Assembly: GCA_023818965.1 (NCBI GenBank)
Contig: JAMWCD010000008.1
Coordinates: forward strand, 47,086 to 111,085
Reading direction: 5' to 3'
DNA length: 64,000 nucleotides
Source of the DNA: Candidatus Omnitrophota bacterium
GTDB lineage: Bacteria; Ratteibacteria; UBA8468; B48-G9; DTJG01
This document shows positions 1,176 through 26,895 of the stretch, piece by piece. The position numbers were made by a program, and so were the translations under genes. The notes below the pieces were generated by a model that saw nothing but the letters and a program-made list of their open reading frames with translations, did not search any database and was not told the DNA's origin. The stretch's first letter is position 1. Every line of letters begins with the position of its first letter.

Positions 1176-2993
1176 ATGTTGAACACAGGATGGAAAAGAT
1201 TGATGTTTGCATTATTCATCTTATTTTTTCTTTCAAGTGCCTATGCTCAAATTACAGTAAATGCAGTAAGGACTTTTTCTCAATCAACATATTTGCCAGG
1301 ACAGAGTATTGATGTGACGCTGGCAATTGAAATCACAGGAATGCCAACAGCAGTAATTATTAATGAAACAATACCTGAGACATGGCAGATAACATCATCA
1401 AACCTGCCAATAAATAGTTTTATTGCTCCATCAACTTATAAATGGCTTCAATTTAATGCCACAGGAGTCTCATCAGTTGAAATAAAATATTCTGTAAGTA
1501 TTCCTGAAGATGCTACCGGTGATCAAAGTTTTACAGGACTCGTTGAATATCTTGAAAATGAAACGATGATAACTACTACCATTGGTGGGCAAACAACAAT
1601 TACACTACCACCATCAGGTTTTGGGATTTCCCCTCAATCACTTCATTTTGGAACAACTGATACATCAGCAACTGTTACACTGAGTAATCTTGGTGGTTCA
1701 TCTATTAACTGGACATCATCAATTGCTACTGATGATGGTATTACGGGCTGGTTGAAAGTTTCTCCAAATTCTGGAACGATTGCTGCTGGTTCTAATGCAA
1801 CTGCTACTGTTCAAATTACAAGGTCTCTTTTAACAACAGGTTCTCATACAGGTTCAATTACTTTTACCGCAAATACAAGTCCTGAAACTTCTATAGTTTT
1901 AAGAGTTTCCGCGATTGTTGGAAGTCCTTCTCCTGTTAGTAATTTCACTGCAAGTGCCCTTTTCAATTCAATACTTTTGTCCTGGCAGAATCCTTCAAGT
2001 TTCACTGGAACAATAATTTTCAGGAAAAATGTTCCACTTTCGTGGGATGATAAACCAGTTAATGGAACAAGTTATACGATTGGAAGTCGGCTTCCTGGCG
2101 GTGCAATATGCGTATTCAAAGATACTGTTAATCAGGACACATCATTTATTGATGATACAGCAGTAGAAACATCATATTACAGGATTTTCAGTTTTGATGA
2201 TGGAAGTGCCCCATCTTATTATCCTTTGTATTCTGAAAAATATTCTGATAGCCCCAGTACTGGAATAATACCTTTGCCGATTGAAGTGATATGGGAAGGA
2301 GATAATTTATTCACTGAAACTCAGGTTTACAATGACCCATATGGTTATAATCTTCTTGCTAAATTCAATACATCAGGAGTTAGTGAAGCAGACCCAAAAG
2401 TTTATGTTGGTTATGTGCCTCCAGATTATATCCCTCCAAAACTTACCTCTGTTACAGGGTTCAAAAACACTTATTTATTGAGTTCAAACTTTACTCTAAA
2501 TCCTGATGATACTGTTGACATAAGAATACCTGTGCGACTTGATGAACTGGCAACAGAAGAAACAAGCGTGACTCTGCATAAGACCCATGTTTATCACTGG
2601 CCTGGTGCAAATAATAAATGGGAAGACATTACATCTCAGGTGATAGAAAGAAATCTTAGCCAGATGTATATTACTGTTCGATTAAATGGAAATCAATTAA
2701 AGGGAAATGACTATTTCTCACTCGGCATACCACAGCCCTCTGTAGGTTCAGGTGGCGGTTGTTTTATTGCAACTGCTGCTTATGGAACACCATTTGCGAA
2801 GGAAATTAATGTTTTAAGGAAATTCAGAGACCAGAAACTTTTAAAAACAAAAATGGGAAGTGCCTTTGTAAGATTTTACTATAGACACAGTCCACCAATT
2901 GCAAGTTTTATCAAGGATAAGCCAGTGTTAAGAGCATTTGTGAGAGGAATTTTAAAGCCCATTGTATGGCTTTGCGGGAAATTTGTGGTTTAG
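1176..2993 (+). CDS. secreted surface protein: DUF11-like domain, FN3-like module, CFIATAA-type C-terminal anchor domain
   Basis: Signal peptide 'MLNTGWKRLMFALFILFFLSSAYAQ'. 'ETIPETWQIT...YKWLQF...IKYSVSIPEDATGDQSFTG' matches the recurrent DUF11-like family. An FN3-like 'LLSWQNPSS' follows. The C-terminus 'GSGGGCFIATAAYGTPFAKEINVLRKFRD...YYRHSPPIASFI' is shared with the next gene. Confidence 0.7.
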   Translation: MLNTGWKRLMFALFILFFLSSAYAQITVNAVRTFSQSTYLPGQSIDVTLAIEITGMPTAVIINETIPETWQITSSNLPINSFIAPSTYKWLQFNATGVSSVEIKYSVSIPEDATGDQSFTGLVEYLENETMITTTIGGQTTITLPPSGFGISPQSLHFGTTDTSATVTLSNLGGSSINWTSSIATDDGITGWLKVSPNSGTIAAGSNATATVQITRSLLTTGSHTGSITFTANTSPETSIVLRVSAIVGSPSPVSNFTASALFNSILLSWQNPSSFTGTIIFRKNVPLSWDDKPVNGTSYTIGSRLPGGAICVFKDTVNQDTSFIDDTAVETSYYRIFSFDDGSAPSYYPLYSEKYSDSPSTGIIPLPIEVIWEGDNLFTETQVYNDPYGYNLLAKFNTSGVSEADPKVYVGYVPPDYIPPKLTSVTGFKNTYLLSSNFTLNPDDTVDIRIPVRLDELATEETSVTLHKTHVYHWPGANNKWEDITSQVIERNLSQMYITVRLNGNQLKGNDYFSLGIPQPSVGSGGGCFIATAAYGTPFAKEINVLRKFRDQKLLKTKMGSAFVRFYYRHSPPIASFIKDKPVLRAFVRGILKPIVWLCGKFVV

Positions 2994-3125
2994 TTTCTTT
3001 GAAAATTTCTTAGTCTTTTCCTCCTCCATTCTCCCCCTTTTTACAAAGGGGATCTAAGGGGGATTTAAGGTAGTTTCTCCCTTTTCCAAAGGGAGATGCA
3101 AGAGGGATTTTGAATGTAGAAGGTT
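2994..3125. repeat. G-rich palindromic repeat array (families F1, F2)
   Basis: Units 'tctccccctttttacaaaggggatctaagggggattt' and 'gtagtttctcccttttccaaagggagatgcaagagggatttt'. Confidence 0.8.
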
Positions 3126-3161
3126 AACAGAAATTTTTGATTGTTAAAGGAGAAGCATAAT

Positions 3162-6100
3162 ATGAAAATCAGGAATTTAATTTTATCACTTGTTTTGACA
3201 GGCATTCTATTTACTCAGTACGCAAACTCAAAGGTAACGACTAATTCTGTAAGGTCATATGTTGTTGCCAATCAGGGAATTCTTCCGAATACAAATAGCG
3301 TTCCGCATTCGCCATACAGTCAGGTAATCGGTAGAAATGCAATTGGTGAGGGATACATTATAATTTTTGGTATGAACCTTGCCTCAGATTCTGGTGCGAC
3401 GAGTCCGCAACGTCTTGTCAGTGTAACATTAACAATGGCGCCAACACCTGGATTTGATGTTGACTCGTCTGTTATTATCGATCGTTCTGGAACAATTCTC
3501 GGTGTTACAGGTGGAGTTGGAACAATAACGATACCTGCCGGACGCAGGCCAATATTACCACCTGATGATACTGGTGGATATGCTGGAGATGATTTTTTTG
3601 TTGCGATAAGAACATCTGATAATTGTCTTGATGGCAGCAGTGCAACTTTTTCTATTCCTGCACTTGGTGTTTCTGTTACTCCTGTTCTTGAAGGTGATGT
3701 AACCTGTCCAGGTGGAACCACTGTGGCAATAACGTGTGAAATGCTTATTGGCGACTTATTGCCTGAAGAATATGATAATGCTCATTCAATAGGAATACCT
3801 CAGTATCCTTCTTATTTTCAGTGGCAGCCAGGAGAAATGATAAGACCAAGATATGACCATATTCCATTTGATTATCAATATGCAATCAGTCCATTGACAT
3901 TGCCTACTGTTCCACTGATTCACAATGTTCCACAGGTTGTTCCCTGGGAGACACCAACAGCAGTTCTCGGAATTGCATGCGCTCAAAGAAATGTTACTCC
4001 GAGTGGGGATCCTGTTCCTGCGATTCAGGACCCAGGTGAAGGATTGAATTCAATTACCTTGACTATTACAGATGTTGGAGATAGTGATTTTGATCCGAAT
4101 AATTTTTTCAGAAATAGAGATATTACTTTTGTTAACCCTGAAAATCCATATTCTATCCCGGGTATCACGCTGTGGAAGGATACCAATAATAATGGAATTT
4201 GGGACCCAGGAGATACATTATTAGATTATCAAATGAGTCCTTTTACTCCAACAGGCAATGTTAGGGAATGGACAGTTTCTCTTTCTCCAGTATTAGGAGA
4301 ACCTGATACTATTGATGACCTCTGGGATGGAACTGGGGGAAAGGGGAAATACGATTATTTTATTGTAATCACAATTGCAAGTTCAAATGATTCAGGTACA
4401 CCCAATGTTTCAATTGGTGGTGACTTCAAAATATGGATACCACGAGGTGGTGTTTTGTTTGGTCCTCTTTCTTTTCCCCAGCGATATGCGGGAATATCTC
4501 AAGGACAGGTAAAAACAACTTATCACAATCTTTATGTTGAAAATATCTGCCAGTCATTTGTTGATCCAACAGATACAGGTGATGCACCTGATTTAACATC
4601 AAATGTGATTCCTGTCTTTGGTTTGAATATTGCTTCAGGACCAGCAAATCTTTTTCCGAATGAATACATACAGAGAGTCAGAATTGACCTTATTGCTTAT
4701 GAAAACATAGACCCTGATGATATCGCTCCATTGCAGGAAAACCAGTACTCTGGAATTACATTATGGCGAGATAACAAAAATCCGCCTGCACAGGTTTCAT
4801 CTGTCATAGCACTTGGCAATTTTGATAGTACCGATACATTTATTCCCTGTAGATTTAGCAGTAATCCATTTGGTCCTTATGATTTCCACTGGGCATCAGA
4901 TGGTTATGACCCATCAGTTGGTGCTTACAGATACCATACATATATGACAACATCAGGTTCTTTAACTGACACGGGCTATGTTTATTTTGATGACATTGAT
5001 CCTGATACTTCTACAGTTCACAGGGGAGATGATTTTTTCATTTGCTTAAGAACAAATAATACCCTTGCTTATGGTTCAAAATTCAGGATTCAGATACCGT
5101 GGAATGAAATCATACTTGAGGGAAGCAAACAAGCCAGGTCAAGTCACGAGTTTTTCTCAACACTTGTCACTGGAAATGTTTTTGCAAAAATCACGGGTCT
5201 TGTCAGTCAGGGAGCAACCATTGGCCCACAGAGTAGTCCAACGCCAGTAATGAAACTACAAATAAATGATAACAATTCAGGAAAAAATCCTTCTTTAACA
5301 GGGCTTACAGTTGAATTTTATAATCGTGGTGGATTTACTCTTGATGACCTTGCTCCATTTACCACGCTTTCTCCGTGGTATGAAGCAGGTACGAACTGGT
5401 ATAATATTACCAACTTCAGTCCTGATGCATTAAAACAATGTGGTGTTGTGATTTACAGGGGAACAGATGCTGGACCTGATTTGAATGACCCTGTGATAAT
5501 CAAAAGATATAAATTTTTAACTTCATCATGGTTTGATACACCCACGGGTTATGTTTTTGAATTTCAAAATCCTGTTTCAATTCCCTGTACTCTTTATGTT
5601 GTCATACGAACCTCATCTTCAATGAGTGCAGGCGATGCATTCAGTGTTGGTATTGTCGGATGGGGAGCAACTCAGATTGATTGGGATACCTGGGCATCAA
5701 GGGCAATTCCTGTTGTTGATAAAAATGGTGTTAAGAGCAATGCCTTTGTCAGAAAGGTCACAGAGCCGTTTAATTCAACGTTAGGTGGCACTCTTGATCT
5801 TTATGCTACACCAGGATTTGATGGAATTACGATCAACTGGGTAAACAGGACAAATGTCACACAAAATGAATTCATCAGTTATGAAATCTGGAGAACAGAT
5901 AGTATCGGTGGTGAAACAGATATAACAAGAATTTCAGTTCCAGCAGGTTGGTCTGCAACTTCATATTTTGAAGCAGTTTCAAGGCAGGGTACAGGTGGAC
6001 TTCTTGAAGGAGTAACTTATAATTATAGATTGGTTATGACTTATTCAAGGGCCGGGACAACTCAGACAGTTGTATCAAACAGGGTTAGTGCGAAAGTGTA

Positions 6101-6791: not shown

Positions 6792-7198
6792 AAATTTTAT
6801 TTCAATTCCCCTTTTAATTTTCAGGGGGACTACGGGGGATTTAAGTAGTTTCTCCCTTTTTTAAATTCTTCTTTCATCCTCCCCCTTTGTAAAGGGGGAC
6901 CACAGGGGGATTTTAAAAGTAGTTTCTCCCTTTTTAAAGGGAGATGCAAGAGGGATTTTAGCCCATCCTTTTGGTTATTCTTTGCCTCGTTTCCTCTCCC
7001 TTGAGGGGAGAGGACAAAAGGTGAGGGTGGCTGTGTAGGAGAATAACCTCCCCTTGCATCCCCTCCTTTCAGGAGGGGAAAGAGGGGAGGTGGCAAAGGG
7101 GGACTACGGGGGATTCAAAAGGAGGGAGAGCAGGAGGGAAAGAGGGGAGGTGATAAAGAGGGATGCAGGCGGATTGAAATAGCGCGATGCAATATTTC
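6792..7198. repeat. palindromic repeat array (F1, F2, F4) including a 140-bp composite unit duplicated at 26718-26860
   Basis: 'agcccatccttttgg[tc]tattctttgcctcgtttcctctcccttgaggggagaggacaaaaggtgagggtggctgtgtaggagaataacctccccttgcatcccctcctttcaggaggggaaagaggggaggtgg' is near-identical at both loci. Confidence 0.85.
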
Positions 7199-7347
7199 AT
7201 ACTAATTTGCCGTCAAAATTATAGGAATACCGAATTGAGTTCGCCAGAGAGCAAGGCGGCAAGGAGAAGGCAACGAGGCATACTGATGTATGTTGAGGAA
7301 GCCGACGACGCAGCCAACGATGCTATATGGATGGAATCAATTCGGTA
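7199..7347 (+). repeat. 149-bp two-copy element (copy 1) with an 11-12 bp long-range inverted repeat 'ataccgaattga...tcaattcggta'; candidate structured sRNA or MITE-like element
   Basis: About 98% identical (3 mismatches in 149) to 17993-18141. It ends 16 nt before the ATG of the 7364 gene. Confidence 0.6.
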
Positions 7348-7363
7348 TCAACAATTTTAAAAA

Positions 7364-8140
7364 ATGAAACAGAATAGTTTTAAATTCAATTTGGCTCGGA
7401 TAGAATTAGTCCCGGCTATTCTTTTGTTGATTTCTTGCTTTCCTTTATTTTCTGCTGATATAAAAAAGCCGTCTCCGAATTTGACTGCAATTTTACAGAA
7501 AAATTTATTTTTTTCTCCCCTTGAAACAAAAAAGGATACCGAGCAATTACCTGTTTTCATCACCAGCATCAAAGAACCTGAACCCCTTGATAAAACTTAC
7601 TCTCTTTCAGGTACATTTGTTTTTACTGATGAGCCCGAAAAAAATACTGCTGTTTTGATTGAAAATAGTTCTAAAAAGATAATCTTTTTGAAAAATGGCG
7701 ACATCATCAATGGTAACAGGGTTATTTCAATTGAAGACAATGGAGTTTTATTTCAATCAGGTTTTGGAGAAAAATTTTTATTGACACAATCAGGAATAAA
7801 GGCATTAGTTCCACAACCAAAAAGATTTTATTTCAGGGTAAATCTTAAATCTGCAATTCAATATTTAACAATGAAACCCGATGTTGTTTATTCAATCAAA
7901 TTCTCTCATGTTGACAGCCCCAGTGGTTTCAAGGTACAAGAAATAGAGCCACAGAGCATTTTTGAATCAGCAGGACTTGGTTTGAACGATGTTATTACAC
8001 AAATAAATGATAAGGTCTTGCAAAGCCCAGATGATGCAATGAGTGCATATATTGATATTCTCAAATCAGGGAAAAAAATTGCACTTGTTAAAGCAATTAG
8101 AGATAAAAAATTGGTTGAACTTGTCTATTTTCTTGAATAA
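7364..8140 (+). CDS. GspC-like secretion protein (N-terminal TM/signal, HR-like segment, C-terminal PDZ domain)
   Basis: N-terminal hydrophobic segment and a C-terminal PDZ-like 'GFKVQEIEPQSIFESAGLGLNDVITQINDKVLQSPDDAMSAYIDILKSGKKIALVKAIRDKKLV'. Domain order is like 28776..29627. Confidence 0.5.
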   Translation: MKQNSFKFNLARIELVPAILLLISCFPLFSADIKKPSPNLTAILQKNLFFSPLETKKDTEQLPVFITSIKEPEPLDKTYSLSGTFVFTDEPEKNTAVLIENSSKKIIFLKNGDIINGNRVISIEDNGVLFQSGFGEKFLLTQSGIKALVPQPKRFYFRVNLKSAIQYLTMKPDVVYSIKFSHVDSPSGFKVQEIEPQSIFESAGLGLNDVITQINDKVLQSPDDAMSAYIDILKSGKKIALVKAIRDKKLVELVYFLE

Positions 8141-8143
8141 AAA

Positions 8144-9046
8144 ATGAAAAAAATATTTGTTTTCGGATTGTGTGTTTTCATTATCGCAGGTTGTGGCAAA
8201 AAACAATCTCCAGTCCAGCAGATGCAGAAGCCACCTGTTTCTTCAGAAACACAGATTATTCAGACAACAAAAACTCAACCAAATATTACTTCCTCAAAGC
8301 CATTGTATCCATCAAGAAAAGAAGAACAAAAAGTAACACCTGAATGGATTAAAAAACTTGTTAGTATTCACAATCAACAATACCAGCAGTGGCAGGAAAA
8401 ATCATCAACTGAAACATCATCTGTTTTGATTGCTTCTTTAATTTCATCAAGTGTAGTTCCATCCTCTCCATCACCCACCAGTTCACCTTCAATTCCAGCG
8501 TCAGGTGGCTCTGTTTCACAGCCATATTCGCCAATTATCAGGCAACCTCAAGCAATGCCATCGGTTTCAACTGCTTCAGGAAGACCTTCTTCAGGGATAA
8601 TCTCTGCTGCGGTATCAGGTAGTTCCTCTGGCACAGCACCACAACCTGGTTCTGGAGGAACAAATCCACCGCAGGATCAGCAACCTCCATCACCAGAAAC
8701 ACCACCAGAACAGCCACAGCAATCATCAGGTGTATCTGTGACAAGGTCAATTCAATCATCATCAGGTAGTGCCTATGTAAGGTTGGATGTTAAAGTCACT
8801 GATAACAGGGTCAATGGAATTATTGTGAGTGAAAACATTCCTGATGGATACCAGTTAATGACTTCGTCTCCAGCAATTTCAAAGAGAGTTGGAAACACAG
8901 TTAAATGGCTTTTTTATGGAACAAGTTTAACTGACCAACTTATCACGTATGAAATTAAAGGGACAGGAAAAGCAACCATTTCAGGAAGTTTCAGTTCAAG
9001 CACTGGAAGCGGAACAATAACAGGTGATTCTCAAATAGGTCAGTAG
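8144..9046 (+). CDS. lipoprotein with Pro/Ser/Gln-rich linker and C-terminal DUF11-like domain
   Basis: Lipobox 'FIIAGC'. Low-complexity PS-rich middle. 'ENIPDGYQLMTSSP...VKWLFYG...ITYEIKGTGKATISGSF'. Confidence 0.7.
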   Translation: MKKIFVFGLCVFIIAGCGKKQSPVQQMQKPPVSSETQIIQTTKTQPNITSSKPLYPSRKEEQKVTPEWIKKLVSIHNQQYQQWQEKSSTETSSVLIASLISSSVVPSSPSPTSSPSIPASGGSVSQPYSPIIRQPQAMPSVSTASGRPSSGIISAAVSGSSSGTAPQPGSGGTNPPQDQQPPSPETPPEQPQQSSGVSVTRSIQSSSGSAYVRLDVKVTDNRVNGIIVSENIPDGYQLMTSSPAISKRVGNTVKWLFYGTSLTDQLITYEIKGTGKATISGSFSSSTGSGTITGDSQIGQ

Positions 9047-9176
9047 AACTTCTCCCATTTTTCAAATCCCCCTTCAAATTCTTCCATCTTCCCCCTTTTT
9101 CCATCCATTTCTTGCCTTATTTCCTCTCCCTTTTTCAAAGGGAGATGCAAGAGGGATTTGAGAGGAAATTGACCTC
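9047..9176. repeat. palindromic repeat array (F1 variant, F2)
   Basis: 'tttctcttccctttttcaaagggagatgcaagagggattt'. Confidence 0.7.
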
Positions 9177-9212
9177 TTGACACCGTCCAATATTTTGATT
9201 ATTATATTGTCA

Positions 9213-9665
9213 ATGGACGAGAATAAAATTGAATTCTATCGCGGAATTCGTTTGGCTGTCGTTATACTTTGTCTTTTCTTTTTTACTCACTCAACAGCAA
9301 TTCAGGGATTTTTGAAACTTCCTGATAATCCTGCCATAAGAAAATTACCTGAAAAATACAGGGGCGGAGAAATTATTGTTGTTACAATCAATGTCAATCC
9401 ATTTCTTCCAGCAGGCACCAAAATCATAGAAAAAGTTCCTGATGGCTGGGACCTTGTTGCAGCAAATCCTCCTCTTGCAGAGCAACCATTTAGAAATATG
9501 TATGTCTGGAAAATTCCCAGAAAGGGAGAAGTGTTGACATCAATAAAATATGCAGTTTCCATTCCACAGGGAAATATTTCAAGGAAGGAATTTACTGGTT
9601 ACATTGATATTGGAAAAAGTATCCGATTAACAATATCAGGAGACAGACACATATGGAGCGAATAA
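9213..9665 (+). CDS. small secreted DUF11-like domain protein
   Basis: The ORF track starts at TTG 9177, but that TTG is the -35 hexamer of a TTGACA-17-TATTAT promoter. ATG 9213 gives 'MDENKIEFYRGIRLAVVILCLFFFTHS'. 'EKVPDGWDLVAANP...YVWKIP...IKYAVSIPQGN...FTG'. Confidence 0.6.
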   Translation: MDENKIEFYRGIRLAVVILCLFFFTHSTAIQGFLKLPDNPAIRKLPEKYRGGEIIVVTINVNPFLPAGTKIIEKVPDGWDLVAANPPLAEQPFRNMYVWKIPRKGEVLTSIKYAVSIPQGNISRKEFTGYIDIGKSIRLTISGDRHIWSE

Positions 9666-10138
9666 AAATTTCAATGTTTGTGATGATGATATTTATTTTT
9701 CTTTCAGGTTGTGTCTCAACTCAGGAGAAAAAAGTTGGTCCAGTTGTGCAGCCAGAAAAAAGCCAATCAAAAAACTTGGAAGTTAAAACAATGATTACCA
9801 CAGCCACAAGATTTTTACCTGAGTTCTGTCAACCAGGTGAAACAATTAAAGTGAAAATTGATATTGTGCCATTAAAACAAACCAATGGTGTTATTGTAAC
9901 TGAAAAAATCCCTGAGGGCTGGAAAATTGTAAAGGCAGAACCTGTAATTTCAAAAGTGATGCCTGATGGTTCATACAAATGGCTTCAATGGGGACAGGAA
10001 GTTACTCCATTTACAATTATCTATGAAGTAAAAGTCCCTGAAACAGCAAAAGGAAAGTATAATTTTGAAGGCACAATCACGACATATCGCGAAGGAGATA
10101 TTGAAATTATTGGTGCAAACTGTATCACAGTGAAATGA
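9653..10138 (+). CDS. lipoprotein with DUF11-like domain
   Basis: Lipobox 'FLSGC'. 'EKIPEGWKIVKAEP...YKWLQWG...IIYEVKVPETAKGKYNFEGTI'. Confidence 0.75.
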   Translation: MERIKISMFVMMIFIFLSGCVSTQEKKVGPVVQPEKSQSKNLEVKTMITTATRFLPEFCQPGETIKVKIDIVPLKQTNGVIVTEKIPEGWKIVKAEPVISKVMPDGSYKWLQWGQEVTPFTIIYEVKVPETAKGKYNFEGTITTYREGDIEIIGANCITVK

Positions 10139-10239
10139 AAAAATGTTGGCAGAAATTTCAAACAATGGCTAAACGTTTTGATAAGGAAGGCGTCAAATAT
10201 TATATGAGGGCGAATTTTTTAATAATTCGTTCTTTGAAA

Positions 10240-10530
10240 ATTCTCCCCCTTTTTAACCTCCCCTTGCATCCCCTCCTTTCAGGAGGGGAAAGAAGGGAAG
10301 TGCCAAAGGGGGACTGAGGGGGATTTAAATCCACCCCAACCCTCCTTTAGAAAAGGAGGGAGAAAATTTCCCCCTTTTTCAAATCCCTCCTCCAATTTCC
10401 CCCTTTTTTAACCTCCCATTGCATCCCCCCTCCTTGCAGGAGGGGAAACAGGGGAAGTGGCGAAGGGGGACTAAAGGGGATTGAAAAGTAGGGAGAGCAG
10501 GCGAAGGAAGAGGTACAATAAGATGATACA
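10240..10530. repeat. palindromic repeat array (F4, F1, F3)
   Basis: 'cctccccttgcatcccctcctttcaggaggggaaaga' occurs twice here. 'atccaccccaaccctcctttagaaaaggagggag' is also present. Confidence 0.8.
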
Positions 10531-10556
10531 AAAAAAATACAAAACAGGAGGAACAA

Positions 10557-13500
10557 ATGAATAAGAAGTTTTTATTTCTACTGTCATTTCTTTCAGGAAT
10601 TTTCCTGACATCCGCTGCATTTGGTGCTAAGCCGAGTCAACCTGGTGTTCTTGGGCACGCAGGAAATACCACAAGTTCTATCACCTGGATTTGGACTGAT
10701 AATTCTAATAATGAACAGGGTTTCAGGTGTTATGAATGGTACTGGGATTCAAATTTGAAAAGATACGTCAGGAGTAATAACCCTGTCTGGTCGGTTAATG
10801 CCAATATTACTTCTTACACAGAAACAGGTCTTGCACCAAATACCCAGTACAGACGAGTGATTGTTGCCTGGAATACTGATGGAGAAAGCCCACAGGCATT
10901 ATATGATTCTACCAGGAATCAATATTATTTCCGTTCTGACCCACCTGATTATCCAAAACCCGACTTTCTTGTCGCTTGTTATACCAGCATTGAGCCACCA
11001 GCAGGTCTTGAATTTGGTCCAAAAGGAGTTAATGAACTGACAGTGAGATTAAAAGACCCTGTTCCATCTAATTTGATGAGTAGTGGTTCTGTTTACGGCT
11101 ATTTCAATCCAAACGATTCAGGCTTCTGGATTGAAGATATAACAATTGGCACACATAAATCCGGTTGGTGGAAGGATAACAATGACTATGACCCATTAGG
11201 ACCGATGACAGGTTTTCCCCTTGGTGCAATAAATTGGGACAAATACCTTAAAAATGGTCCTGCCAGTTATAACTCTTCAACAGGACAATATTCTTCAAAC
11301 CACGTTTGGAAATACTGGTGTGTTGAAAACCTTGACCCTAATACTCCTTATAGTTTCAGGGCAAAGGCAAGAAATGGTGATATGGATGAAACTGCATGGT
11401 GTCCGCCGAGTCAGGAAGTATGGACTTTACCAAAGAGACCCCTTATTTCTTGCGACCAGGAAATTAATAAGTGTTATGACCCTGGTACAAAATTTACTTT
11501 TACAAGTTTAATCCCATTTGGAATTGGTTCTGTTGACCACTATCATATTAAATGGACAACAGACCAAACAGCAAACCCTTCTGAAGAAGACACAAAGTGG
11601 GGGACAGGTCTCTGGATTATTACTGAAAACCGGCTTTCTGATTTTTATCTTGTTATAAAATCTCATAATTATCAGCACGAAGAAACAATAACCTATGACA
11701 TTGATGGTTCTACGGTTCTCGGTTTTACCTATGTTGTAAACAGGACAACAGGAGCCACGCGCACGGATTATAACTATCCGGTTCGCAATGAAAATATTGT
11801 TACTATAGGTCCATTCAAAATTGGTTATGAAGTAGAAGGAAAAGTAACAATCAGTGGTGGAACTGGTTCATATACTGATGTTGTTGTTCATTGTGGTGGT
11901 TACACAACAAAATGCGATTCCGAAGGCAAATATAAATTTAAGAACTTACCACCTGGTACCTATGACCTGTATCCTGAACTACCTGGTTATAGAATTGCCT
12001 GGCCTGTTGATAATGCAGGGCACTATTCAGTAAAGGTTGGACCTGCCGCCACAGGTAAGGACTTTACTCTTGCTTACAAAAACACCTATACCATTGCAGG
12101 AAAAGTAACTCTTGTTGGTGGCTCTGGTGATGTAAAAGGTGTTACAATCACCTGCGGAAGTTATACCCCTGTTCATCCTGATGCAAATGGTAATTTCTAC
12201 ATTCCTGGTGTTTTTGCAGGAACATATAAATTAAAGGCAACATTTTCAGATGCGGATTATACTTTAACTTTCCCTGCCAATGGAGAATACACTGTTTCTG
12301 TTGGTCCTGATGCCACAGGTAAGGATTTTGTTTTCACATATACTGCAGGTGTTGATGTTGCGAAAATTTCAGGAACAGTAAAACTTATTGGTGGCTCAGG
12401 AGACCCAACAAAAGCAACTGTTTACTGTAAAAATTTAACAACAAACATTACTGGTACGACTGCTCCTAAGAACACAGGTTCTTATTCCTTCAAAGACCTT
12501 CTAAAAACCAATTCTTATGAACTCTGGGTTAAAATGGATGGCTACAAAACAACATTACCTGTTTCAGGTAAATACAGGATAGATAACCTTCAAACAGATA
12601 CACAACTGGATTTTGAAATGACCCCTATTTCCTATTACAGCATTAGCGGAAAGGTTCAAGTTTCTGAAGGGGTCATCACACCACCTGATACAAAGGTTCA
12701 CTGCGATTGTCTCACAGATACAAGCATTGCCTTTGCTCTTAATCCTGACAATGATGGTACATACAATTTTAGCAGTGTCCCTGAAGGTAGTTACAGGGTC
12801 TGGCTTGAAATTCCATCCGGCTATAAAATCACAAATCCTGCTTCAATCAAATATGAGCCAATTGTTGTTGGTCCTGATGCAAGCGGCAAAGATTTTCTTG
12901 TTGAACCAATAGCGAAATATTCTCTTTCAGGAAAAGTTACCCTTTTCGGTGGTACCTGCACTCCACGTGAGGCACTTGTTGTCTGCAGTTATTACAACAG
13001 CATAAAAAAGGAATACATTACTTTTACCACTGTTCCTGATGCTAATGGCAATTACAAATTTATCAATCTTGTACCAGCCAGTTACACTGTTTCAGTAAGT
13101 TTAACAGGTTATAATCCTGTATCTCCAGCAAAAGGTTATTATACAGTCACAATTGTCAACATGGATATTACAGGAAAGGACTTTTATCTTGCGAGTTATG
13201 CCATTAAAGGAACAGTGACAATTGCAACCCCGGGTCCTGAAAAAATAACAGATGTCACAATTATTTGTTCAGCCACAAGTAATAATCCTGATATTCCGAA
13301 TGTTTATGTTGTTACACATCCTGATTCTAATGGAAACTATGCTTTCTATAATCTTGTTCCCTCAGCAAAACTTGCAAATCCTGCTGGTGGAAATCCAGTA
13401 CCTTACAGGGTTGAAGTAAAACTTGCTGGCTATGGCTGTATTTCTCCGGCAAGCGGTTATTATGATGTAACAATCACGAACAAAGATGAGATAAGAAATT

Positions 13501-16277
13501 TCATCCTTGCAACATACTCAATTTCAGGAAAAATTTCCCTTTATTCAGGTTCAGCTGATTTAACAAAGGCAACTGTTACTGCTGCAAAACTTGATAAACA
13601 GGGTGGAAATGAGATTGACTGGATTGTTGTTAATCCTGATGCCAATGGAAATTACAAGTTTGATAGAATTGTTCCAGGGAGTTATTACAGAGTCAGGGTA
13701 AAACTGGATGGATTTTATTCTATAAGACCAAATGAACAGGGTTCAAACTGGGGTTATGAACGTTACATCCCTCCATCACAAACAAATCTTGATTTTATTA
13801 TGATGCCAACAACGGCAACTGCGCCGACCTACACAATTTCAGGAAGGGTTACTGTCAATGGAGGAACAATAACACCTGACAAAGTAATGGTTCATTGCGG
13901 GGACTTAAAGACATACCCGAATTCCCTTGGTGACTATTATTTCAAAAATCTGAATTTAGGAACATATGATGTTTGGGTTGAACGACTTGGTTATAAAACA
14001 ATCAATCCAGCAACAAATGGTGGTCATTACTATGTCACAGTTGATGGTTCTGTTCCTGAAATAACAGGGAAGGATTTTACTATTATTCCTGAACCAGTTC
14101 CCACTTATAAAATCAGTGGGACTGTGACACTTGTTGGTGGAAGTGGCAAAATTACAGATGTTACTGTTCATTGCAACACTCTCACTGCAACACCTGATAA
14201 TCAGGGGAAATACGAGTTTAAAAATCTTCCAGCAGGCAGTTATGAACTCTGGGTAGAACTTGAAAAATACGAGACATCAAATCCAGGTGGTTCTGGAAGA
14301 CAAACAGTAAAACTTTATGACAGGGATATTGCAGGTGTTGATTTTACATTGAAGGCAATCCCAACATATTCAATTTCAGGCACAGTCACAATCACTGATG
14401 GCGATGTTACACAGGTCAGCATCATTTGTAGTTCAGGTGCCACAGTTCATCCTGATATTTACGGAAGATACAGAATAGATGAACTTCTTGCAGGTAATTA
14501 CACTGTGCATGCTGAAATGCCAGGATTTATTGTGATAAAACCCACAAACAATCTTTACAGTGTAAAACTTGGTCCAAATGCAGACAAATGTGATTTTACT
14601 CTTGTTAAATATTACACAATTTCAGGAAGAATAACACTTAGTGGTGGAACAGGCGATGTCAGGAATGTTGTTGTTAAATGTGGAACGAGTACCTTGAAGG
14701 CAACCCCGGTTGTTTATGTGACCGCCACTGGCGACAAATACCACAGGGGCAACTGTTCCTACTTATGGGGCAGCAAAATCGAGAAGACGCTCGAAGAGGC
14801 TATCAGTGAGGGCTATACACCGTGTTCTGTCTGCAAGCCGTTAACCATTGACGAGGGTAAGTATGAATTCACCTATCTTCTTCCTGGAATTTATGATGTC
14901 TCTGCAACCCTTGATGGCTATGCTGTTGATAATCCTGCTTCTGGTTCATACAAAATTACCCTTGGTCCTGATGCAAACCTGACAAACTTCAATTTCATTG
15001 CAACAACATTACTCTCTGTCTCAGGAAAAGTAACAATTATGAATGGACCAGGGCAGATGAGTGATGTTAGTGTTTCAATTGCAGGGCTTACAACAAAACC
15101 GGATGCAAATGGAAACTATACAATTTCAGGAATTTCACCAGGAACCTATGATTTAACAGCACAACTTACTGATTACACAGTTGTTGCTCCATCAGCAGGC
15201 AAACACAGAATTACATTCACCAGAAGCAACCTGACAAATTATAACTTTTCTCTTTATGCTTATTCTGTTTCTGGTAAAGTAAAAATCATTGGTAATGCAG
15301 ATGTAGCAAATGTTGTTATTTCCTGTGGAGGTAAAACAACACATCCTGATGCCAGTGGAAACTATCAGATAATACCTCTTGCACCTGGTAATTATGAAGT
15401 TTTAGCAACATTAACAAACTATTCCACTGTCTTACCATCAGGAGACGGAAAATATAAAGTGACCCTTGGTCCTGATGCAACAAACAAAAACTTTACCTTA
15501 GCGACTTACTCAATTTCAGGAAATGTTTCATTCTATGCGGCAACTGGAAATGTTACAAATGTTGTTATTACTTTGAATGGTCCTGTGAACAGGACAACAA
15601 CTCCTGATTCAAAGGGGAATTATCAATTTACAGAAGTTCCTGGCGGTGTATATGAATTAACTGCAAATTTATCAGGATATACTGTTATCAGTCCATCAGG
15701 TGGAAAATACAATCTTACATTAAATTCCAATCTCACAGGTAAAAACTTTGTCCTGACAACATATTCTGTATCCGGGAAAATCAATCTTGCTGGAAGTCCA
15801 GTGCCAGTGACAAATGTAACAGTAACACTGACTGGTCCCACAGGAACAATTAACACTTCTCCTGATGAAAAAGGGTATTACAATTTTTCCACTTTGCCAG
15901 CAGGCGAATATACAGTGAGTGCTTCACTTTCCAACCACACTGTTGTTTCTCCTTCCAATGGCTCATTCACATTTAAGATACCACCATCAGGCACAGGAAA
16001 AGATTTTTCCATTGTTGCCTACTCAATTTCAGGTTCAGTAAGTGTTTATGATGCCAGTGGACCAGCAGGAACAATTGTTTACTGTCAGGGACCAATCGGT
16101 ACTCAACAGATTACAGTTGATGCCACAGGCAAATTTAAATTTTATCCACTTCCACGAGGCAACTATAGATTATGGGCTGAAAAACCTGGTTATAAAGTAA
16201 CATATCCATCTGACGGAGAATATAATTTCACGCTGGATAGCTGGGCAACAAGAAACTTTGTTTTGAAATTAAAATAA
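10557..16277 (+). CDS. giant secreted protein (1906 aa): N-terminal FN3-like region followed by about 19 tandem CarboxypepD_reg/Big-like beta-sandwich repeats
   Basis: Signal peptide, and SD 'caggagg' upstream. The unit 'Y[ST]ISG[KT]VT..GG.G....V.V.C.......PD.NGNY.F.NL.PG.Y.[LV]...L.GY' recurs about every 90 aa. One unit carries a Cys/His insertion (see findings). Confidence 0.85.
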   Translation: MNKKFLFLLSFLSGIFLTSAAFGAKPSQPGVLGHAGNTTSSITWIWTDNSNNEQGFRCYEWYWDSNLKRYVRSNNPVWSVNANITSYTETGLAPNTQYRRVIVAWNTDGESPQALYDSTRNQYYFRSDPPDYPKPDFLVACYTSIEPPAGLEFGPKGVNELTVRLKDPVPSNLMSSGSVYGYFNPNDSGFWIEDITIGTHKSGWWKDNNDYDPLGPMTGFPLGAINWDKYLKNGPASYNSSTGQYSSNHVWKYWCVENLDPNTPYSFRAKARNGDMDETAWCPPSQEVWTLPKRPLISCDQEINKCYDPGTKFTFTSLIPFGIGSVDHYHIKWTTDQTANPSEEDTKWGTGLWIITENRLSDFYLVIKSHNYQHEETITYDIDGSTVLGFTYVVNRTTGATRTDYNYPVRNENIVTIGPFKIGYEVEGKVTISGGTGSYTDVVVHCGGYTTKCDSEGKYKFKNLPPGTYDLYPELPGYRIAWPVDNAGHYSVKVGPAATGKDFTLAYKNTYTIAGKVTLVGGSGDVKGVTITCGSYTPVHPDANGNFYIPGVFAGTYKLKATFSDADYTLTFPANGEYTVSVGPDATGKDFVFTYTAGVDVAKISGTVKLIGGSGDPTKATVYCKNLTTNITGTTAPKNTGSYSFKDLLKTNSYELWVKMDGYKTTLPVSGKYRIDNLQTDTQLDFEMTPISYYSISGKVQVSEGVITPPDTKVHCDCLTDTSIAFALNPDNDGTYNFSSVPEGSYRVWLEIPSGYKITNPASIKYEPIVVGPDASGKDFLVEPIAKYSLSGKVTLFGGTCTPREALVVCSYYNSIKKEYITFTTVPDANGNYKFINLVPASYTVSVSLTGYNPVSPAKGYYTVTIVNMDITGKDFYLASYAIKGTVTIATPGPEKITDVTIICSATSNNPDIPNVYVVTHPDSNGNYAFYNLVPSAKLANPAGGNPVPYRVEVKLAGYGCISPASGYYDVTITNKDEIRNFILATYSISGKISLYSGSADLTKATVTAAKLDKQGGNEIDWIVVNPDANGNYKFDRIVPGSYYRVRVKLDGFYSIRPNEQGSNWGYERYIPPSQTNLDFIMMPTTATAPTYTISGRVTVNGGTITPDKVMVHCGDLKTYPNSLGDYYFKNLNLGTYDVWVERLGYKTINPATNGGHYYVTVDGSVPEITGKDFTIIPEPVPTYKISGTVTLVGGSGKITDVTVHCNTLTATPDNQGKYEFKNLPAGSYELWVELEKYETSNPGGSGRQTVKLYDRDIAGVDFTLKAIPTYSISGTVTITDGDVTQVSIICSSGATVHPDIYGRYRIDELLAGNYTVHAEMPGFIVIKPTNNLYSVKLGPNADKCDFTLVKYYTISGRITLSGGTGDVRNVVVKCGTSTLKATPVVYVTATGDKYHRGNCSYLWGSKIEKTLEEAISEGYTPCSVCKPLTIDEGKYEFTYLLPGIYDVSATLDGYAVDNPASGSYKITLGPDANLTNFNFIATTLLSVSGKVTIMNGPGQMSDVSVSIAGLTTKPDANGNYTISGISPGTYDLTAQLTDYTVVAPSAGKHRITFTRSNLTNYNFSLYAYSVSGKVKIIGNADVANVVISCGGKTTHPDASGNYQIIPLAPGNYEVLATLTNYSTVLPSGDGKYKVTLGPDATNKNFTLATYSISGNVSFYAATGNVTNVVITLNGPVNRTTTPDSKGNYQFTEVPGGVYELTANLSGYTVISPSGGKYNLTLNSNLTGKNFVLTTYSVSGKINLAGSPVPVTNVTVTLTGPTGTINTSPDEKGYYNFSTLPAGEYTVSASLSNHTVVSPSNGSFTFKIPPSGTGKDFSIVAYSISGSVSVYDASGPAGTIVYCQGPIGTQQITVDATGKFKFYPLPRGNYRLWAEKPGYKVTYPSDGEYNFTLDSWATRNFVLKLK

Positions 16278-16670
16278 ACCGGCTCTTTGACATTTATTGA
16301 TAGTTTCCCCCTTTTTCAACCTTCGCTCGTCTCCCCCTTTTGCAAAGGGGGACTAAGGGGGATTTAAGGTAGTTTCTCCCTTTTCCAAAGGGAGATGCAA
16401 GAGGGATTTTTATTTTTATGAAGAATCCACCCCCACCCTCCTTTAAAAAAGGAGTGAGAGAAAATTTCCCCCTTTAATAAATCCCTCCTCCGTCCTCCCC
16501 CTTTTTCAAAGGGGGACGAAGGGGGATTTTAAATGAGGGGGATTTAAGGTAGTTTCTCCCTTTTTTAAAGGGAGATGAAAGAGGGATTTTTATCCCCAGG
16601 GAAAATCCACCCCAACCCTCCTTTTTCAAAGGAGGGAGACCAGGAGGAAGCGAGGGGAGGTAGTACAGGA
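16278..16670. repeat. palindromic repeat array (F1, F2, F3, repeated twice over)
   Basis: Two successive F1-F2-F3 blocks. The ORF-track start of the next gene at 16575 lies inside this array. Confidence 0.8.
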
Positions 16671-16712
16671 TATGAAGTTCAGAAATTCATGATTTTACAG
16701 GAGACACCCAAT

Positions 16713-17447
16713 ATGAATTTACCAAAACCTAAAAGTGCATTCACACTTATTGAACTTCTCGTGGTCATAGCAATTATCGCGATTCTTGCTGCCATGCTAC
16801 TGCCCGCGCTATCAAAAGCAAGAGCAAGGGCTCATCAGGCAGTTTGCATGAGCAATCTCAAGCAACTCGGAAACTGCTTTTTTATGTACGCTGATGACTG
16901 GGATGGCTTTTTTCCTAAGGATGCAACAATGTCCAATGTCTGGTTTACACAGATTGCTCTTTACATCCCGCAGACAAGAACCGGCTTTGTTGCGTACAGC
17001 AGTATGTATGACCCAACAGAAGACAACTGGGTTTCAGGAATTTTGAGATGCCCTGCAGAGCCAAAGAGTTCTGCGTTCTGGAATGTTGACTGGAGCGGTA
17101 TGGAGCCAGCAGTGAACAAGGTTGCGACATGGTATGGAATGAATGGTTATCTCTGTGGAACAAGTTCAGACCCTGATTTAAGATACTGGCCCAAACTCTC
17201 AAGAATTAGAAATCCTTCAGCCACGTTTTTACTTTGCGATATGAAACCAGGACCACAACTTGATAATTCTGATTACTACGCAAGAATCAATTTCAATCAT
17301 CCTGAAATGGGCATTGCTTACAGGCACTCTGGTTCAGCCAGTTTCCTTTTTTGTGACGGACATGTAGAAGCAAGAACAAAACAGCAGGTTCCTGTGTGGT
17401 ATTCAGGAACAACTGATCCATTCTGGTTCAGTGGCCAAACGCAATAA
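16713..17447 (+). CDS. prepilin-type N-terminal cleavage/methylation domain protein with C-terminal H-X9-DG (DUF1559-like) motif
   Basis: '[31 protein letters not shown]' is a class III signal peptide and pilin helix. The C-terminus '[24 protein letters not shown]' has the spacing of the H-X9-DG family that is expanded in Planctomycetes and Verrucomicrobia. Start set at ATG 16713; the 16575 start would read through repeats. Confidence 0.75.
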
Positions 17448-17660
17448 TCTTGTCTTCCCCCTTTCCCAAATTCCTCCCCATCCTCCCCCTTTTTCAAAGG
17501 GGGACTGAGGGGGATTCAAAGTAGTTTCTCCCTTTTCCAACCTCCCTCTCGTCTTCCCCCTTTTCCAAAGGGGGACTAAAGGGGGATTTCATCTTTTAAA
17601 TCCACCCCCACCCTCCTTTTTCAAAGGAGGGAGAGCAGGAGGGGAAAAGAGGGGAGGTAG
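17448..17660. repeat. palindromic repeat array (F1 twice, F3)
   Basis: 'tcctccccctttttcaaagggggactgagggggattcaaa' and 'ccacccccaccctcctttttcaaaggagggagagcagg'. Confidence 0.8.
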
Positions 17661-17707
17661 CAATGTAGATTTTCTCAATCCCTTGATTTTCGCGGTTTCC
17701 GGGGCTC

Positions 17708-17735
17708 TTGACAAAATTAAAAATGTGGTTATAAT
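17708..17735 (+). promoter_or_regulatory. sigma70-type promoter (TTGACA-16-TATAAT), first of a tandem pair
   Basis: 'cTTGACAaaattaaaaatgtggtTATAATaa'. Confidence 0.45.
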
Positions 17736-17766
17736 AATTTGTGAAAATGAAAAATCTGGGCAGGTC

Positions 17767-17794
17767 TTGACAAAAAAAATTTAGCAGGTATAAT
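17767..17794 (+). promoter_or_regulatory. sigma70-type promoter (TTGACA-16-TATAAT), second of the tandem pair, reading toward the 149-bp element
   Basis: 'cTTGACAaaaaaaatttagcaggTATAATaa'. There is no convincing CDS downstream before 18675. Confidence 0.45.
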
Positions 17795-17992
17795 AAAGTT
17801 GAAGTAAAAATTTTGACAACACCAAAAAGGTGAAAATATAAAGTAAATGCAGGACAAGATTTACCCAAATTCCGTTCATAATCAGTCGCACCAATACCAC
17901 TCGAGGTATCAAAAAAGGTGTCTTGCTTTTTCATTTTTCAGGAAATTCCATTTTACATTTTCAACGCAGGTTCTTTGAAAATTTGGGTTGTT

Positions 17993-18141
17993 ATACTAAT
18001 TTGCCGTCAAAATTGTAGGAATACCGAATTGAGTTCGCCAGAGAGCAAGGCGGCAAGGAGAAGGCAACGAGGCATACTGAAGTATGTTGAGGAAGCCGAC
18101 GACGCAGCCAACGATGCTATATGGATGAAATCAATTCGGTA
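17993..18141 (+). repeat. 149-bp two-copy element (copy 2), candidate sRNA or MITE-like
   Basis: About 98% identical to 7199-7347, with the same terminal 11-bp inverted repeat. It lies about 200 nt downstream of the tandem promoters. Confidence 0.6.
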
Positions 18142-18189
18142 ATAATATTTTATCCTGTGTTTTTACTCCTTTGAACCTGGAATTCTCTT

Positions 18190-18480
18190 TTCCAAATTTT
18201 TCGCCTTTCATAAAATCCACCCCAACTCTCCAAATCCCCCTTCCATTCCCCCTTTTGTAAATTCCTCCTCCAATTCCCCCTTTTCCAAAGGGGGACTAAA
18301 GGGGGATTTAAGCAGTTTCTCCCTTTTCCAAAGGGAGATGAAAGAGGGATTTTTATCCCCAGGGAAAATCCACCCCAACCCTCCTTTAGAAAAGGAGGGA
18401 GAAGAATATAATTTCCCCCTTTTCCAAAGGGGGACTAAAGGGGGATTAAAAAGGAGGGGAGCAAGGGGGATTAGAAAGGA
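18190..18480. repeat. palindromic repeat array (F1, F2, F3, F1)
   Basis: 'ttcccccttttccaaagggggactaaagggggatttaagcagtttctcccttttccaaagggagatgaaagagggattttt...ccaccccaaccctcctttagaaaaggagggag'. Confidence 0.8.
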
Positions 18481-21753: not shown

Positions 21754-22656
21754 ATGGCTCGTCAATACTTTGCTGTGCGGGTGAAATTTGTTGCTACTTT
21801 TTTGTTTGTTTCCTTTTTCTCGTCCTTTGTTTTTGCTGAAAACACTGCAGTTAGAGACCTTCCTGAACAATACACGCCTGGCTCAAATATTAATGTTTCA
21901 ATTTCTGTGACTATGGACCCGCAGTATCCAACAAACGGTGTTGTTATAACAGAAAACCTGCCGCAGGGCTGGGCAATTGTTCAGTCAAATCCTTCCTGGA
22001 GCAAATACATCGCAAGCACAAACACCTATAAGTGGCTTTCATTTAGCAGTGGATCCATTGGTTCTTTTAATATCACATACACTCTTAGTGTGCCTGGCAA
22101 TGCTTCAGGTAATTATGAATTCACTGGTACAATTTATGATGGCTATTCAATAAGAGATATTACTGGTGATACAGTAATTTCTCAATTGCCACAGGTTGGT
22201 TCGCCTGTTTTTTCTCCGCAGCCCGGAAATTTTTATAATTTTTTTCCTGATGTAGAAATCGCCTGTTCCACAGAAAATGCTGTAATTCATTATACAATTG
22301 ATGGAAGTGAGCCCGATGAAAATTCTTCAGTTTATTCATTACCGCTGCATATTACACAATCAACAACAATAAAGGCGCGCGGATATAAACAGGGTATGTC
22401 GCCGAGTTCAATTGCACAGGGTGTTTACAATATTGAGATTCAAAAAGGAGATATCAACAGGGATGGAATAATTGATATTTCTGATGTGATTTTGTGTTTG
22501 AGGATGGCAGTTGAACTTGATATAACAGTTGACCAGCAGTCATACAGCAAGCCATATAATGATTGGTTGATTGCAATTGCTAATATGAATGATGACTCAG
22601 TAGTTGATATTTCAGATGTGATTAAGGTTTTGAGAAAGGCGATAGAGCTTGATTGA
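21754..22656 (+). CDS. secreted protein: DUF11-like domain, chitobiase/hexosaminidase-C-like (Fn3-associated) domain, C-terminal dockerin type I module
   Basis: 'ENLPQGWAIVQSNP...YKWLSF...ITYTLSVPGNASGNYEFTGTIY'. 'ACSTENAVIHYTIDGSEPDENSSVY...TTIKARGYKQGMSPSS'. The dockerin has two 'D-x-N-x-DG-x-x-D-x-S-D' segments: 'GDINRDGIIDISDVILCLRMAV' and 'ANMNDDSVVDISDVIKVLRKAI'. Confidence 0.75.
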   Translation: MARQYFAVRVKFVATFLFVSFFSSFVFAENTAVRDLPEQYTPGSNINVSISVTMDPQYPTNGVVITENLPQGWAIVQSNPSWSKYIASTNTYKWLSFSSGSIGSFNITYTLSVPGNASGNYEFTGTIYDGYSIRDITGDTVISQLPQVGSPVFSPQPGNFYNFFPDVEIACSTENAVIHYTIDGSEPDENSSVYSLPLHITQSTTIKARGYKQGMSPSSIAQGVYNIEIQKGDINRDGIIDISDVILCLRMAVELDITVDQQSYSKPYNDWLIAIANMNDDSVVDISDVIKVLRKAIELD

Positions 22657-26313: not shown

Positions 26314-26895
26314 AAGTAGATTTATCCACAACAACATTATTAAATCCCCCTTTTATAAATCCCGCTCGTTTCTTCCCCCTTTCATAAAACCTCCTCTTTT
26401 AACTTCCCCCTTTTTCAAATTCCCCTCCAATTTCCCCCTTTTTCAAAGGGGGACAAAGGGGGATTTAAATCCACCCCAGCCCTCCTTTAGAAAAGGAGGG
26501 AGAAAAATATAATTTCCCCCTTTTGTAAAGGGGGACGCAGGGGGATTAAAAAGGAGGGAGAGGAAGGAAGGTAAAGGGGACTAAAGGGGGATTGAAAAGT
26601 AGGGAGAAGAATATAATTTTCCCCTTTTTCAAATTCCTCCTCCAATTTCCCCCTTTCATAAAGGGGGATTGAGGGGGATTTAAGGTAGTTTCTCCCTTTT
26701 TCAAAGGGAGATGCAAGAGGGATTTTTAGCCCATCCTTTTGGCTATTCTTTGCCTCGTTTCCTCTCCCTTGAGGGGAGAGGACAAAAGGTGAGGGTGGCT
26801 GTGTAGGAGAATAACCTCCCCTTGCATCCCCTCCTTTCAGGAGGGGAAAGAGGGGAGGTGGTAAAGGTGGATTAGGGGGGATTTTAAGAGGCAAA
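26314..26895. repeat. large palindromic repeat array (F1, F3, F2, 140-bp composite, F4)
   Basis: Contains the second copy of the 140-bp composite unit at about 26718-26860. Confidence 0.85.

Follow-up and report, generated by a model that had tools for sequence, protein, structure and literature searches.

A dispersed 148-bp non-coding repeat of an uncultured Omnitrophota bacterium, probably a MITE (miniature inverted-repeat transposable element)

Bacterial MITEs (miniature inverted-repeat transposable elements) measure 100-200 bp and give transcripts that form long stem-loops, closed by pairing of the element ends and containing A-G mispairs; they are often co-transcribed, affect mRNA stability, and often carry an open frame on one strand (PMC2229807). 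Here we analysed a window of 64,000 nucleotides (the whole stretch of DNA considered, positions 47,086 to 111,085 of contig JAMWCD010000008.1, assembly GCA_023818965.1) from a Candidatus Omnitrophota bacterium, in which an earlier note, made from the sequence alone, had described a repeated element and offered three candidate identities for it: a cis-regulatory leader or riboswitch, a small RNA gene, and a non-autonomous mobile element of the MITE type. The last of these is supported by dispersed copies, sharp ends and co-varying TNA duplications, and we estimate the probability that the element is a non-coding 148-bp DNA transposon (MITE), dispersed in an uncultured bacterium, at roughly 85%. 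The MITE features observed comprise its small non-coding size, its many dispersed copies, its target-site duplication, and the presence of element-free syntenic sites in relatives.

The closest described systems are the ERIC/IRU, Correia/NEMIS, RUP and YPAL elements, which the repeat resembles in being 100-200 bp long and non-coding, in lying between genes within housekeeping operons, in having short target-site duplications, and in folding into one long stem-loop by pairing of its 5' and 3' ends with purine-purine mispairs (PMC2229807). The one-strand open frame of ERIC, Correia, RUP and YPAL elements can extend neighbouring open reading frames (ORFs), and a comparable open frame of 44 codons is found on the minus strand of the element described here, which, like ERIC, is conserved across related taxa. 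It departs from these families in that its duplication is 3 bp (TNA) where theirs is TA, in showing no sequence similarity to them, in having an Omnitrophica/Ratteibacteria-like host, in that the perfect inverted repeat of its main subfamily is sub-terminal at the left end, and in that its purine-rich core is conserved across lineages with diverged ends. A TNA target with a 3-bp duplication is instead shared with the IS1031 group of the IS5 family, whose reported target preference is TNA (PMC1676026). As a lead only, the duplication may point to an IS1031-like (IS5 family) or similar transposase. A TNA target with a 3-bp duplication, there in the form TWA, is also characteristic of the PIF/Harbinger superfamily with its Tourist-like MITEs. 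The termini of the element, TAC...GTA or TTCCA...TGGAA depending on the subfamily, are unlike the GG/GA-type ends that we take to be usual in the IS5 family.

The junctions of the element provide evidence for the transposon reading. We aligned them for all copies with both ends visible, which gave 15 independent loci (numbered with the prefix L where they need to be told apart), and found that a T-N-A triplet brackets the 148-nt element on each side. The middle base of this triplet is the same on both sides at 15/15 loci, being A, C or T about five times each, and all three bases agree at 13 of them. Were the two sides independent, agreement of the middle base throughout would have a chance of about (1/3)^15, and the co-variation of the triplet on both sides therefore identifies it as a 3-bp duplication of a TNA target site. 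For the subfamily made up of L028/L031 and L026, the arrangement is TAA-TTCCATTT...AATTGGAA-TAA, with TTCCA...TGGAA ends, and terminal inverted repeats of 17-18 bp are found in the L028, L026 and L029 subfamily. At the single locus scored for this, L006, the duplicated TAA doubles as the stop codon of the upstream gene.

Searches with the core of the element showed how widely it is dispersed. An exact core 24-mer recovered one divergent copy among the GTDB representative genomes, in an unclassified metagenome-assembled genome (MAG; L001), and a 19-nt core seed gave 36 metagenome matches, of which 26 were true and 10 were chance matches that we set aside (L005, L007, L013, L017, L018, L025, L033-L035). 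Near-identical copies of the window type made up 21 of the 26 true matches, with 12 of them lying on 10 contigs of one metagenome (Ga0078972). Taken together, the window and metagenome copies represent at least 18 independent insertion loci with sharp ends and wholly unrelated flanks. There are 19 copies of full length, which fall into 16 distinct sequences and are at least 97% identical. Divergent members occur in at least six further lineages (L001, identical to L012; L028, identical to L031; L029; L026; L038; and L067a/L067b), the L067 members having been reached through a protein search with the 44-aa minus-strand peptide that gave a single weak match. Among the metagenome loci, L016 is the strain-level orthologue of the window's copy-1 locus and L004 that of its copy-2 locus. 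In addition, Logan contigs carrying the gene downstream of copy 1 (encoding a GspC-like protein) start within the element, as is typical where an assembly is interrupted by a repeat present in many copies. No relatives were found by blastn against plasmid and phage collections, except for a 38-nt chance match in a tape-measure gene, and two pattern scans of viral contigs gave chance matches only, all inside coding genes of phages (that for DnaB in L002, and a pair of structural genes in L041-L059).

Within the family, a multi-base variant, GAGGAAGCC > GAAAAATCC (GAAAAAGCC in L006), recurs at separate loci and differs between strains at orthologous loci: it was seen on comparing positions 7295-7303 of the window with L016, and L021 and L009 with L024. 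The variant breaks one core base pair, and its recurrence suggests either gene conversion between copies or two co-circulating subfamilies.

Comparison with relatives (52-62%) showed that the sites of both window copies can be without the element. Where a relative's GspC-like protein shares 59-62% identity, the gene upstream, which encodes 1215 aa, either overlaps the GspC-like gene or is 57 nt away, and a covariance model run on these syntenic operons detected no element. Similarly, a 57% relative of the copy-2 locus has kept the flanking GGTTCTTTGAAAAT..GGGT motif and lacks the element.

Several observations weigh against the MITE reading. First, the termini of the window type match at 7/10 positions only, the perfect 12-bp repeat being sub-terminal on the left, and the older members L029, L067a, L067b and L031b have no intact duplication. 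Second, no strictly isogenic empty site was found, as exact-protein look-ups gave only short contigs broken at repeats. Third, neither the 64-kb window nor about 256 kb of related loci yielded an autonomous partner, that is, a transposase gene with the same ends; the scanned ORFs of the window include no transposase, the related loci contain no solo ends of a parent insertion sequence (IS), and no transposase family is found among the best 25 of the 175 Pfam families matched by 102 neighbouring proteins. Finally, the core is identical among lineages whose ends are unrelated in sequence. A classic MITE would be expected to conserve its ends rather than its core, since it is the ends that bind transposase; the sameness of the core between lineages is partly a matter of ascertainment, because the search seed lay within it.

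As to how the element would spread, we propose that a transposase acting in trans from a gene elsewhere, most probably of the DDE type and cutting with a 3-bp stagger, would insert it at TNA and so duplicate the triplet, and that surviving insertions would be filtered to the short AT-rich intergenic gaps of a compact genome. Since the element lies in gaps between genes, at several loci just before a ribosome-binding site, it would be co-transcribed with its neighbours and, by analogy with ERIC and Correia elements, its hairpin may affect how stable the host mRNA is or how it is processed. The analysed loci offer no evidence in support of a gene-specific regulatory role for the hairpin.

The two window copies themselves, which the earlier note had described as about 98% identical, align without gaps over 7199-7347 and 17993-18141 with three mismatches in 149 positions (7221 A/G, 7287 T/A and 7334 G/A), and their resemblance ends abruptly on either side. 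A 40-mer of the element occurs at two sites in the whole window, namely in these copies, where none would be expected by chance. The length of 149 bp given earlier is correct for the match between the two copies, whereas the element proper is 148 nt long (TACTAATTTGCC...AATTCGGTA) and flanked by 3-nt target-site duplications (Table 1). On the plus strand it folds into a single long hairpin (-49 kcal/mol, z = -4.8) that is closed by a 12-bp helix between ATACCGAATTGA and TCAATTCGGTAT, the counterpart of the 11-12 bp long-range inverted repeat noticed before; the minus-strand fold is weaker (-36.6 kcal/mol, z = -2.3). The covariance model R1 scores 150 bits on copy 1, spanning 7227-7348.

Table 1. 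Positions in the window of the two element copies, their parts, and neighbouring features of the copy-2 locus.
Feature	Positions	Strand	Basis or remark
MITE copy 1 (probable), 148 nt, TAC...GTA	7200..7347	+	Borders from 15 loci with unrelated flanks; R1 covariance model
5' target-site duplication of copy 1, TCA	7197..7199	.	Equals 7348-7350
3' target-site duplication of copy 1, TCA	7348..7350	.	Equals 7197-7199
Outer helix of copy 1, 5' arm	7227..7238	+	Sub-terminal, after a 27-nt extension (7200-7226)
Conserved 5' core, GGCGGCAAGGAGAAGGCAACGAGGC	7255..7279	+	Identical in window type, L001, L028 and L029; includes the search seed, so that its conservation is ascertained
Apical hairpin	7278..7294	+	Sequence and length differ among lineages, pairing kept; compensatory changes A-U>G-C and C-G>U-A
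Conserved 3' core, GAGGAAGCCGACGACGCAGCCAAC	7295..7318	+	Kept across lineages; outside the search seed
Outer helix of copy 1, 3' arm	7337..7348	+	At the right end of the element
MITE copy 2 (probable), 148 nt	17994..18141	+	Alignment with copy 1, covariance model, target-site duplication
5' target-site duplication of copy 2, TTA	17991..17993	.	Junction alignment
3' target-site duplication of copy 2, ATA	18142..18144	.	One base decayed from TTA; same mismatch in strain L004
Two perfect tandem sigma-70 promoters, TTGACA-16-TATAAT	17708-17735, 17767-17794	+	12/12 matches; feature of the locus, not of the element
Terminator-like hairpin between promoters and copy 2	17902..17925	+	Three stem differences from L004, all keeping pairing; not part of the element

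The gene surroundings of the copies bear directly on whether the element is a leader or riboswitch acting on the gene that follows it. As noted before, copy 1 ends 16 nt upstream of the ATG at 7364, which begins a PDZ-domain, GspC-like gene; it forms a stable hairpin, and several other copies likewise end a few bases before a ribosome-binding site (TAA-GGAGG in L006, TCA-GGAGG in L023), a placement that would suit a leader. Copy 2 lies 534 nt upstream of the next long ORF, which starts at 18675 and encodes a 935-aa PD40/Tricorn-like protein, in agreement with the distance of about 530 nt reported earlier. Against a leader, the downstream genes are functionally unrelated: rpsL, tsaD and an FmdB-like gene stand directly 3' of the element in three loci, era is among the other unrelated housekeeping genes adjoining copies, and the 102 neighbouring proteins, which include EF-Tu, TsaD, DNA polymerase III alpha and Met-tRNA synthetase, have no Pfam family common to more than three. 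Nor is the position of the element that of a leader in every case, as it lies between convergent genes in L022 and L037 and antisense to both neighbours in L020 and in the divergent members L029, L031 and L038. Furthermore, the orthologous GspC-like operons of relatives are without any such leader, and the target-site duplications show that the element arrived by insertion. Rfam 15 at gathering thresholds returned only the tmRNA and one tRNA for the whole window and nothing for the element, and at E<=10 the region around copy 2 gave only noise. We therefore consider a regulatory leader or riboswitch, whether for the GspC-like gene or for any other, extremely unlikely.

A second candidate, a multi-copy gene for a trans-acting small RNA, would have its promoter either in the tandem sites upstream of copy 2 or within the 27-nt 5' extension. 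These tandem promoters, which the earlier note had placed about 200 nt 5' of copy 2, are indeed perfect at all positions, and are the only two perfect TTGACA-16-TATAAT sites in the 64 kb, where 0.04 would be expected; by eye, a third, near-perfect site (TTGACA-18-TATAAA) can be recognised at 17813-17842, and the hexamers of the region 17708-17794 are unchanged in strain L004. The stand-alone appearance of members from other lineages, which lie antisense between genes, would also be compatible with a small RNA gene. However, such promoters precede none of the other copies, no promoter-like site lies inside the element and no terminator follows it, the terminator-like hairpin at the copy-2 locus intervenes between promoters and element, and members of the L028 type have no 5' extension at all. 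A small RNA gene driven by the tandem promoters thus appears very unlikely as the identity of the element, and the promoters belong to the copy-2 locus rather than to the element.

What these promoters transcribe could be a short RNA of about 130 nt, possibly a small RNA, or else a long and structured leader that precedes the gene for the secreted PD40/Tricorn-like protein. The segment 17801-17940 shows no overall fold signal (z = -0.26), no Rfam match was found for the promoter and hairpin region (17708-17940), and the substitutions relative to L004 in a 43-codon ORF (17847-17978) show no coding pattern. The element, and the palindromic arrays discussed below, would then have inserted into a region transcribed from these promoters.

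In the divergent members, the outer stems are unrelated in sequence to those of the window type and have nevertheless retained their complementarity, and compensatory changes also affect an inner 3-bp helix (G-C>U-A). We tested covariation over 32 pairs in 21 distinct sequences, using a model-guided alignment: 96.3% of the cells were paired, as compared with 27-43% when partners were slid by 1-3 columns, bearing in mind that the alignment was itself fitted to the model. Changes on both sides were seen in 17 of the 32 pairs, and none of 500 shuffles reached the observed values, with the caveat that the outer helices can seem to covary when two ends bound by transposase change in parallel. The non-Watson-Crick cells, summed over about eight lineages, comprise approximately 26 G-U and 5 A-C combinations, and this excess of G-U identifies the plus strand as the one whose pairing is preserved, and speaks for a transcript, or for single-stranded DNA of the top strand, rather than for a symmetric DNA palindrome.

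The internal loops of the hairpin are purine-rich and conserved, reading GGC-AA-G-GA-G-AA-GGC-AA-C-GA-GGC on the 5' strand and GA-G-GAA-GCC-GA-C-GA-C-RMA-GCC on the 3' strand, and the predicted fold allows them to be interpreted as isolated G-C pairs with tandem G-A mismatches in between. The 3' core is nearly invariant even though it lies outside the seed, whereas the invariance of the 5' core, which contains the seed, is ascertained. Altered cores occur in L031b and L067b, both found without the seed, and include a change from GGC/GCC to GGU/GCU in which wobble pairs are kept.

Some divergent members have additional features of their own. L031 contains, at 5048-5173 on the minus strand, a second and far more divergent hairpin element that scores 32 bits with the covariance model; it is separated from the first by 120 nt, shares its strand, and has a perfect outer inverted repeat (GACGGCATCGTAAAAAGGCC) and no recognisable TNA duplication. 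Insertions in the apical hairpin are found in L026, L038 and L067b. The members at 9623-9765 (-) of L067 and 5033-5230 (-) of L038, which come from different metagenomes, have an extra apical insertion in common (..ACGCGTGACCTT.AGGTTATACG..), indicating that the apex of the hairpin tolerates insertions, and L038 has an additional 58-nt hairpin inserted in its 5' strand. About 900 nt separate the L001 member (105-234) from genes for an HTH_36 protein and for a large serine recombinase with a Resolvase domain (377-841 on the minus and 1143-2018 on the plus strand), which puts it at the edge of an integrated element; an association with a serine recombinase is seen at no other copy.

These structural data raise the possibility that the core of the MITE has been exapted as a functional RNA module, for instance one that stabilises mRNA, offers RNase a processing site or binds a protein as a hairpin, with host selection on the transcript maintaining its structure and purine-rich loops. 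Such a module, which would be a refinement of the MITE reading and no substitute for it, would account for the top-strand G-U bias, for the compensatory changes in inner helices that cannot be terminal inverted repeats, and for the conservation of the 3' core loops. It would also fit the absence of any difference between copy 2 and L004 (0/148), as their flanking intergenic DNA differs by about 5%, and the finding that 6/8 copies in operon-like settings share the orientation of the genes. The 6:2 split is not significant, however, the divergence of copy 1 from L016 (4/148 positions) is similar to that of its flanks, and copies within the genome tolerate both mismatches in the outer helix and the GAGGAAGCC>GAAAAATCC variant. 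Gene conversion could also account for the homogeneity; the sameness of copy 2 between strains may reflect constraint, gene conversion or chance. We regard an exapted module as possible, though only tentatively so.

A more specific and, in our view, doubtful proposal is that the invariant purine-rich core, with its predicted tandem G-A mismatches between GGC/GCC helices, is the functional heart of the element, forming a top-strand RNA or single-stranded DNA structure that a dedicated protein recognises regardless of the stem sequence. This protein might belong to the machinery by which the element itself transposes, or be an RNA-binding factor of the host put to use by the element. Recognition of the folded core by a protein would explain both why the core is identical in spite of unrelated ends and why pairing is biased to one strand.

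The same top-strand bias, together with a conserved core structure on variable stem sequences, could also be explained if the element moved as single-stranded DNA by means of an HUH/Y1 enzyme that reads the folded top strand, as a REP/REPIN (RAYT) or an IS200/IS605-derived PATE. The setting has likenesses to REP/REPIN systems, which depend on RAYT (Y1) transposases, in that palindromic intergenic repeats abound in the same genome and related genomes carry a Y1_Tnp gene. REPs are 20-40 nt long, have no target-site duplication and carry GTAG/CGTC tags, features that fit the G5/C5 arrays of the window better than they fit the 148-nt element. To our knowledge, Y1/HUH transposition creates no target-site duplications, which is at odds with the co-varying TNA duplication at every locus scored; in addition, the element is unrelated in sequence to the G5/C5 palindromes of the arrays, and none of the 102 neighbouring proteins places a Y1 gene next to any copy. 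Mobility of this kind is, in consequence, highly improbable for the element.

The arrays are of interest in their own right. Dense short G5/C5 palindromes (CCCCCTTTT..AAAGGGGGA and variants), which resemble REP/BIME-type repeats, occupy most intergenic gaps of the window, for example at 2992-3160, 6838-7190, 10254-10515, 16291-16640, 17443-17660, 18218-18480, 26332-26890, 29657-30126 and 53908-54381. The earlier note was right that they adjoin both copies of the element, but since no fewer than 17 intergenic regions of the window are filled with them, their presence beside the copies is not particular to the element. Three relatives carry a gene for a 229-aa Y1_Tnp protein (PF01797, RAYT-like) directly preceding a giant CarboxypepD_reg gene (L060 7217-7906, L061 5428-6117 and L062 4171-4860), the counterpart in the window (10139-10556) consisting of REP-like arrays only, and this enzyme family could be what spreads the palindrome arrays. 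A separate repeat of 160 nt, with two 97% identical copies (6956-7115 and 26724-26883), lies inside the arrays, one copy being just 5' of copy 1 of the element.

Several further identities were considered and rejected. The 14-codon micro-ORF suggested earlier is not conserved, as L001, L028 and L029 have no start codon for it and variants within the family change RK to KN. Coding potential more generally, suggested by the RNY periodicity of the 3' half (EEADDAANDAIWM...), was ruled out by a 2-nt difference in apical-loop length between the window type and L001 that shifts the frame, and by the lack of a conserved start. A retron msr/msd with a1/a2 repeats was ruled out because there is no reverse transcriptase, a single hairpin, and many copies with target-site duplications. 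We also excluded a signal recognition particle (SRP), 6S or CsrB-like RNA, to which GGA motifs and a likeness to GGAAGC.GCC had drawn attention, since nothing in Rfam matches, the apex varies and the element is mobile, and an integron attC site, since there is no RYYYAAC/GTTRRRY pair and no cassette array.

Elsewhere in the window, a tmRNA gene (42198-42548, 149 bits) and a tRNA-Leu(CAG) gene (37747-37831) were identified, and dockerin-like repeat pairs (GDINNDGVVDISDVILCLRMA...) are found at the C-termini of two secreted proteins (22447-22649 and 27336-27499). Homologues of two window proteins come from 'Candidatus Omnitrophica' or 'Candidatus Ratteibacteria' MAGs.

Collectively, if the element is the transposon that the junctions suggest, it represents a previously undescribed MITE family in a little-studied lineage, of a kind of element that is already known. 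For annotation, its recognition keeps these hairpins from being called leaders, small RNAs or micro-ORFs, and the repeat accounts for assembly breaks such as those of Logan contigs that end inside it. The element might, in addition, be used to mark where a transposase has recently been active. If it proved true that the sameness of the core and the strand bias reflect structure-specific recognition, this would be an unusual way to define a DNA transposon.

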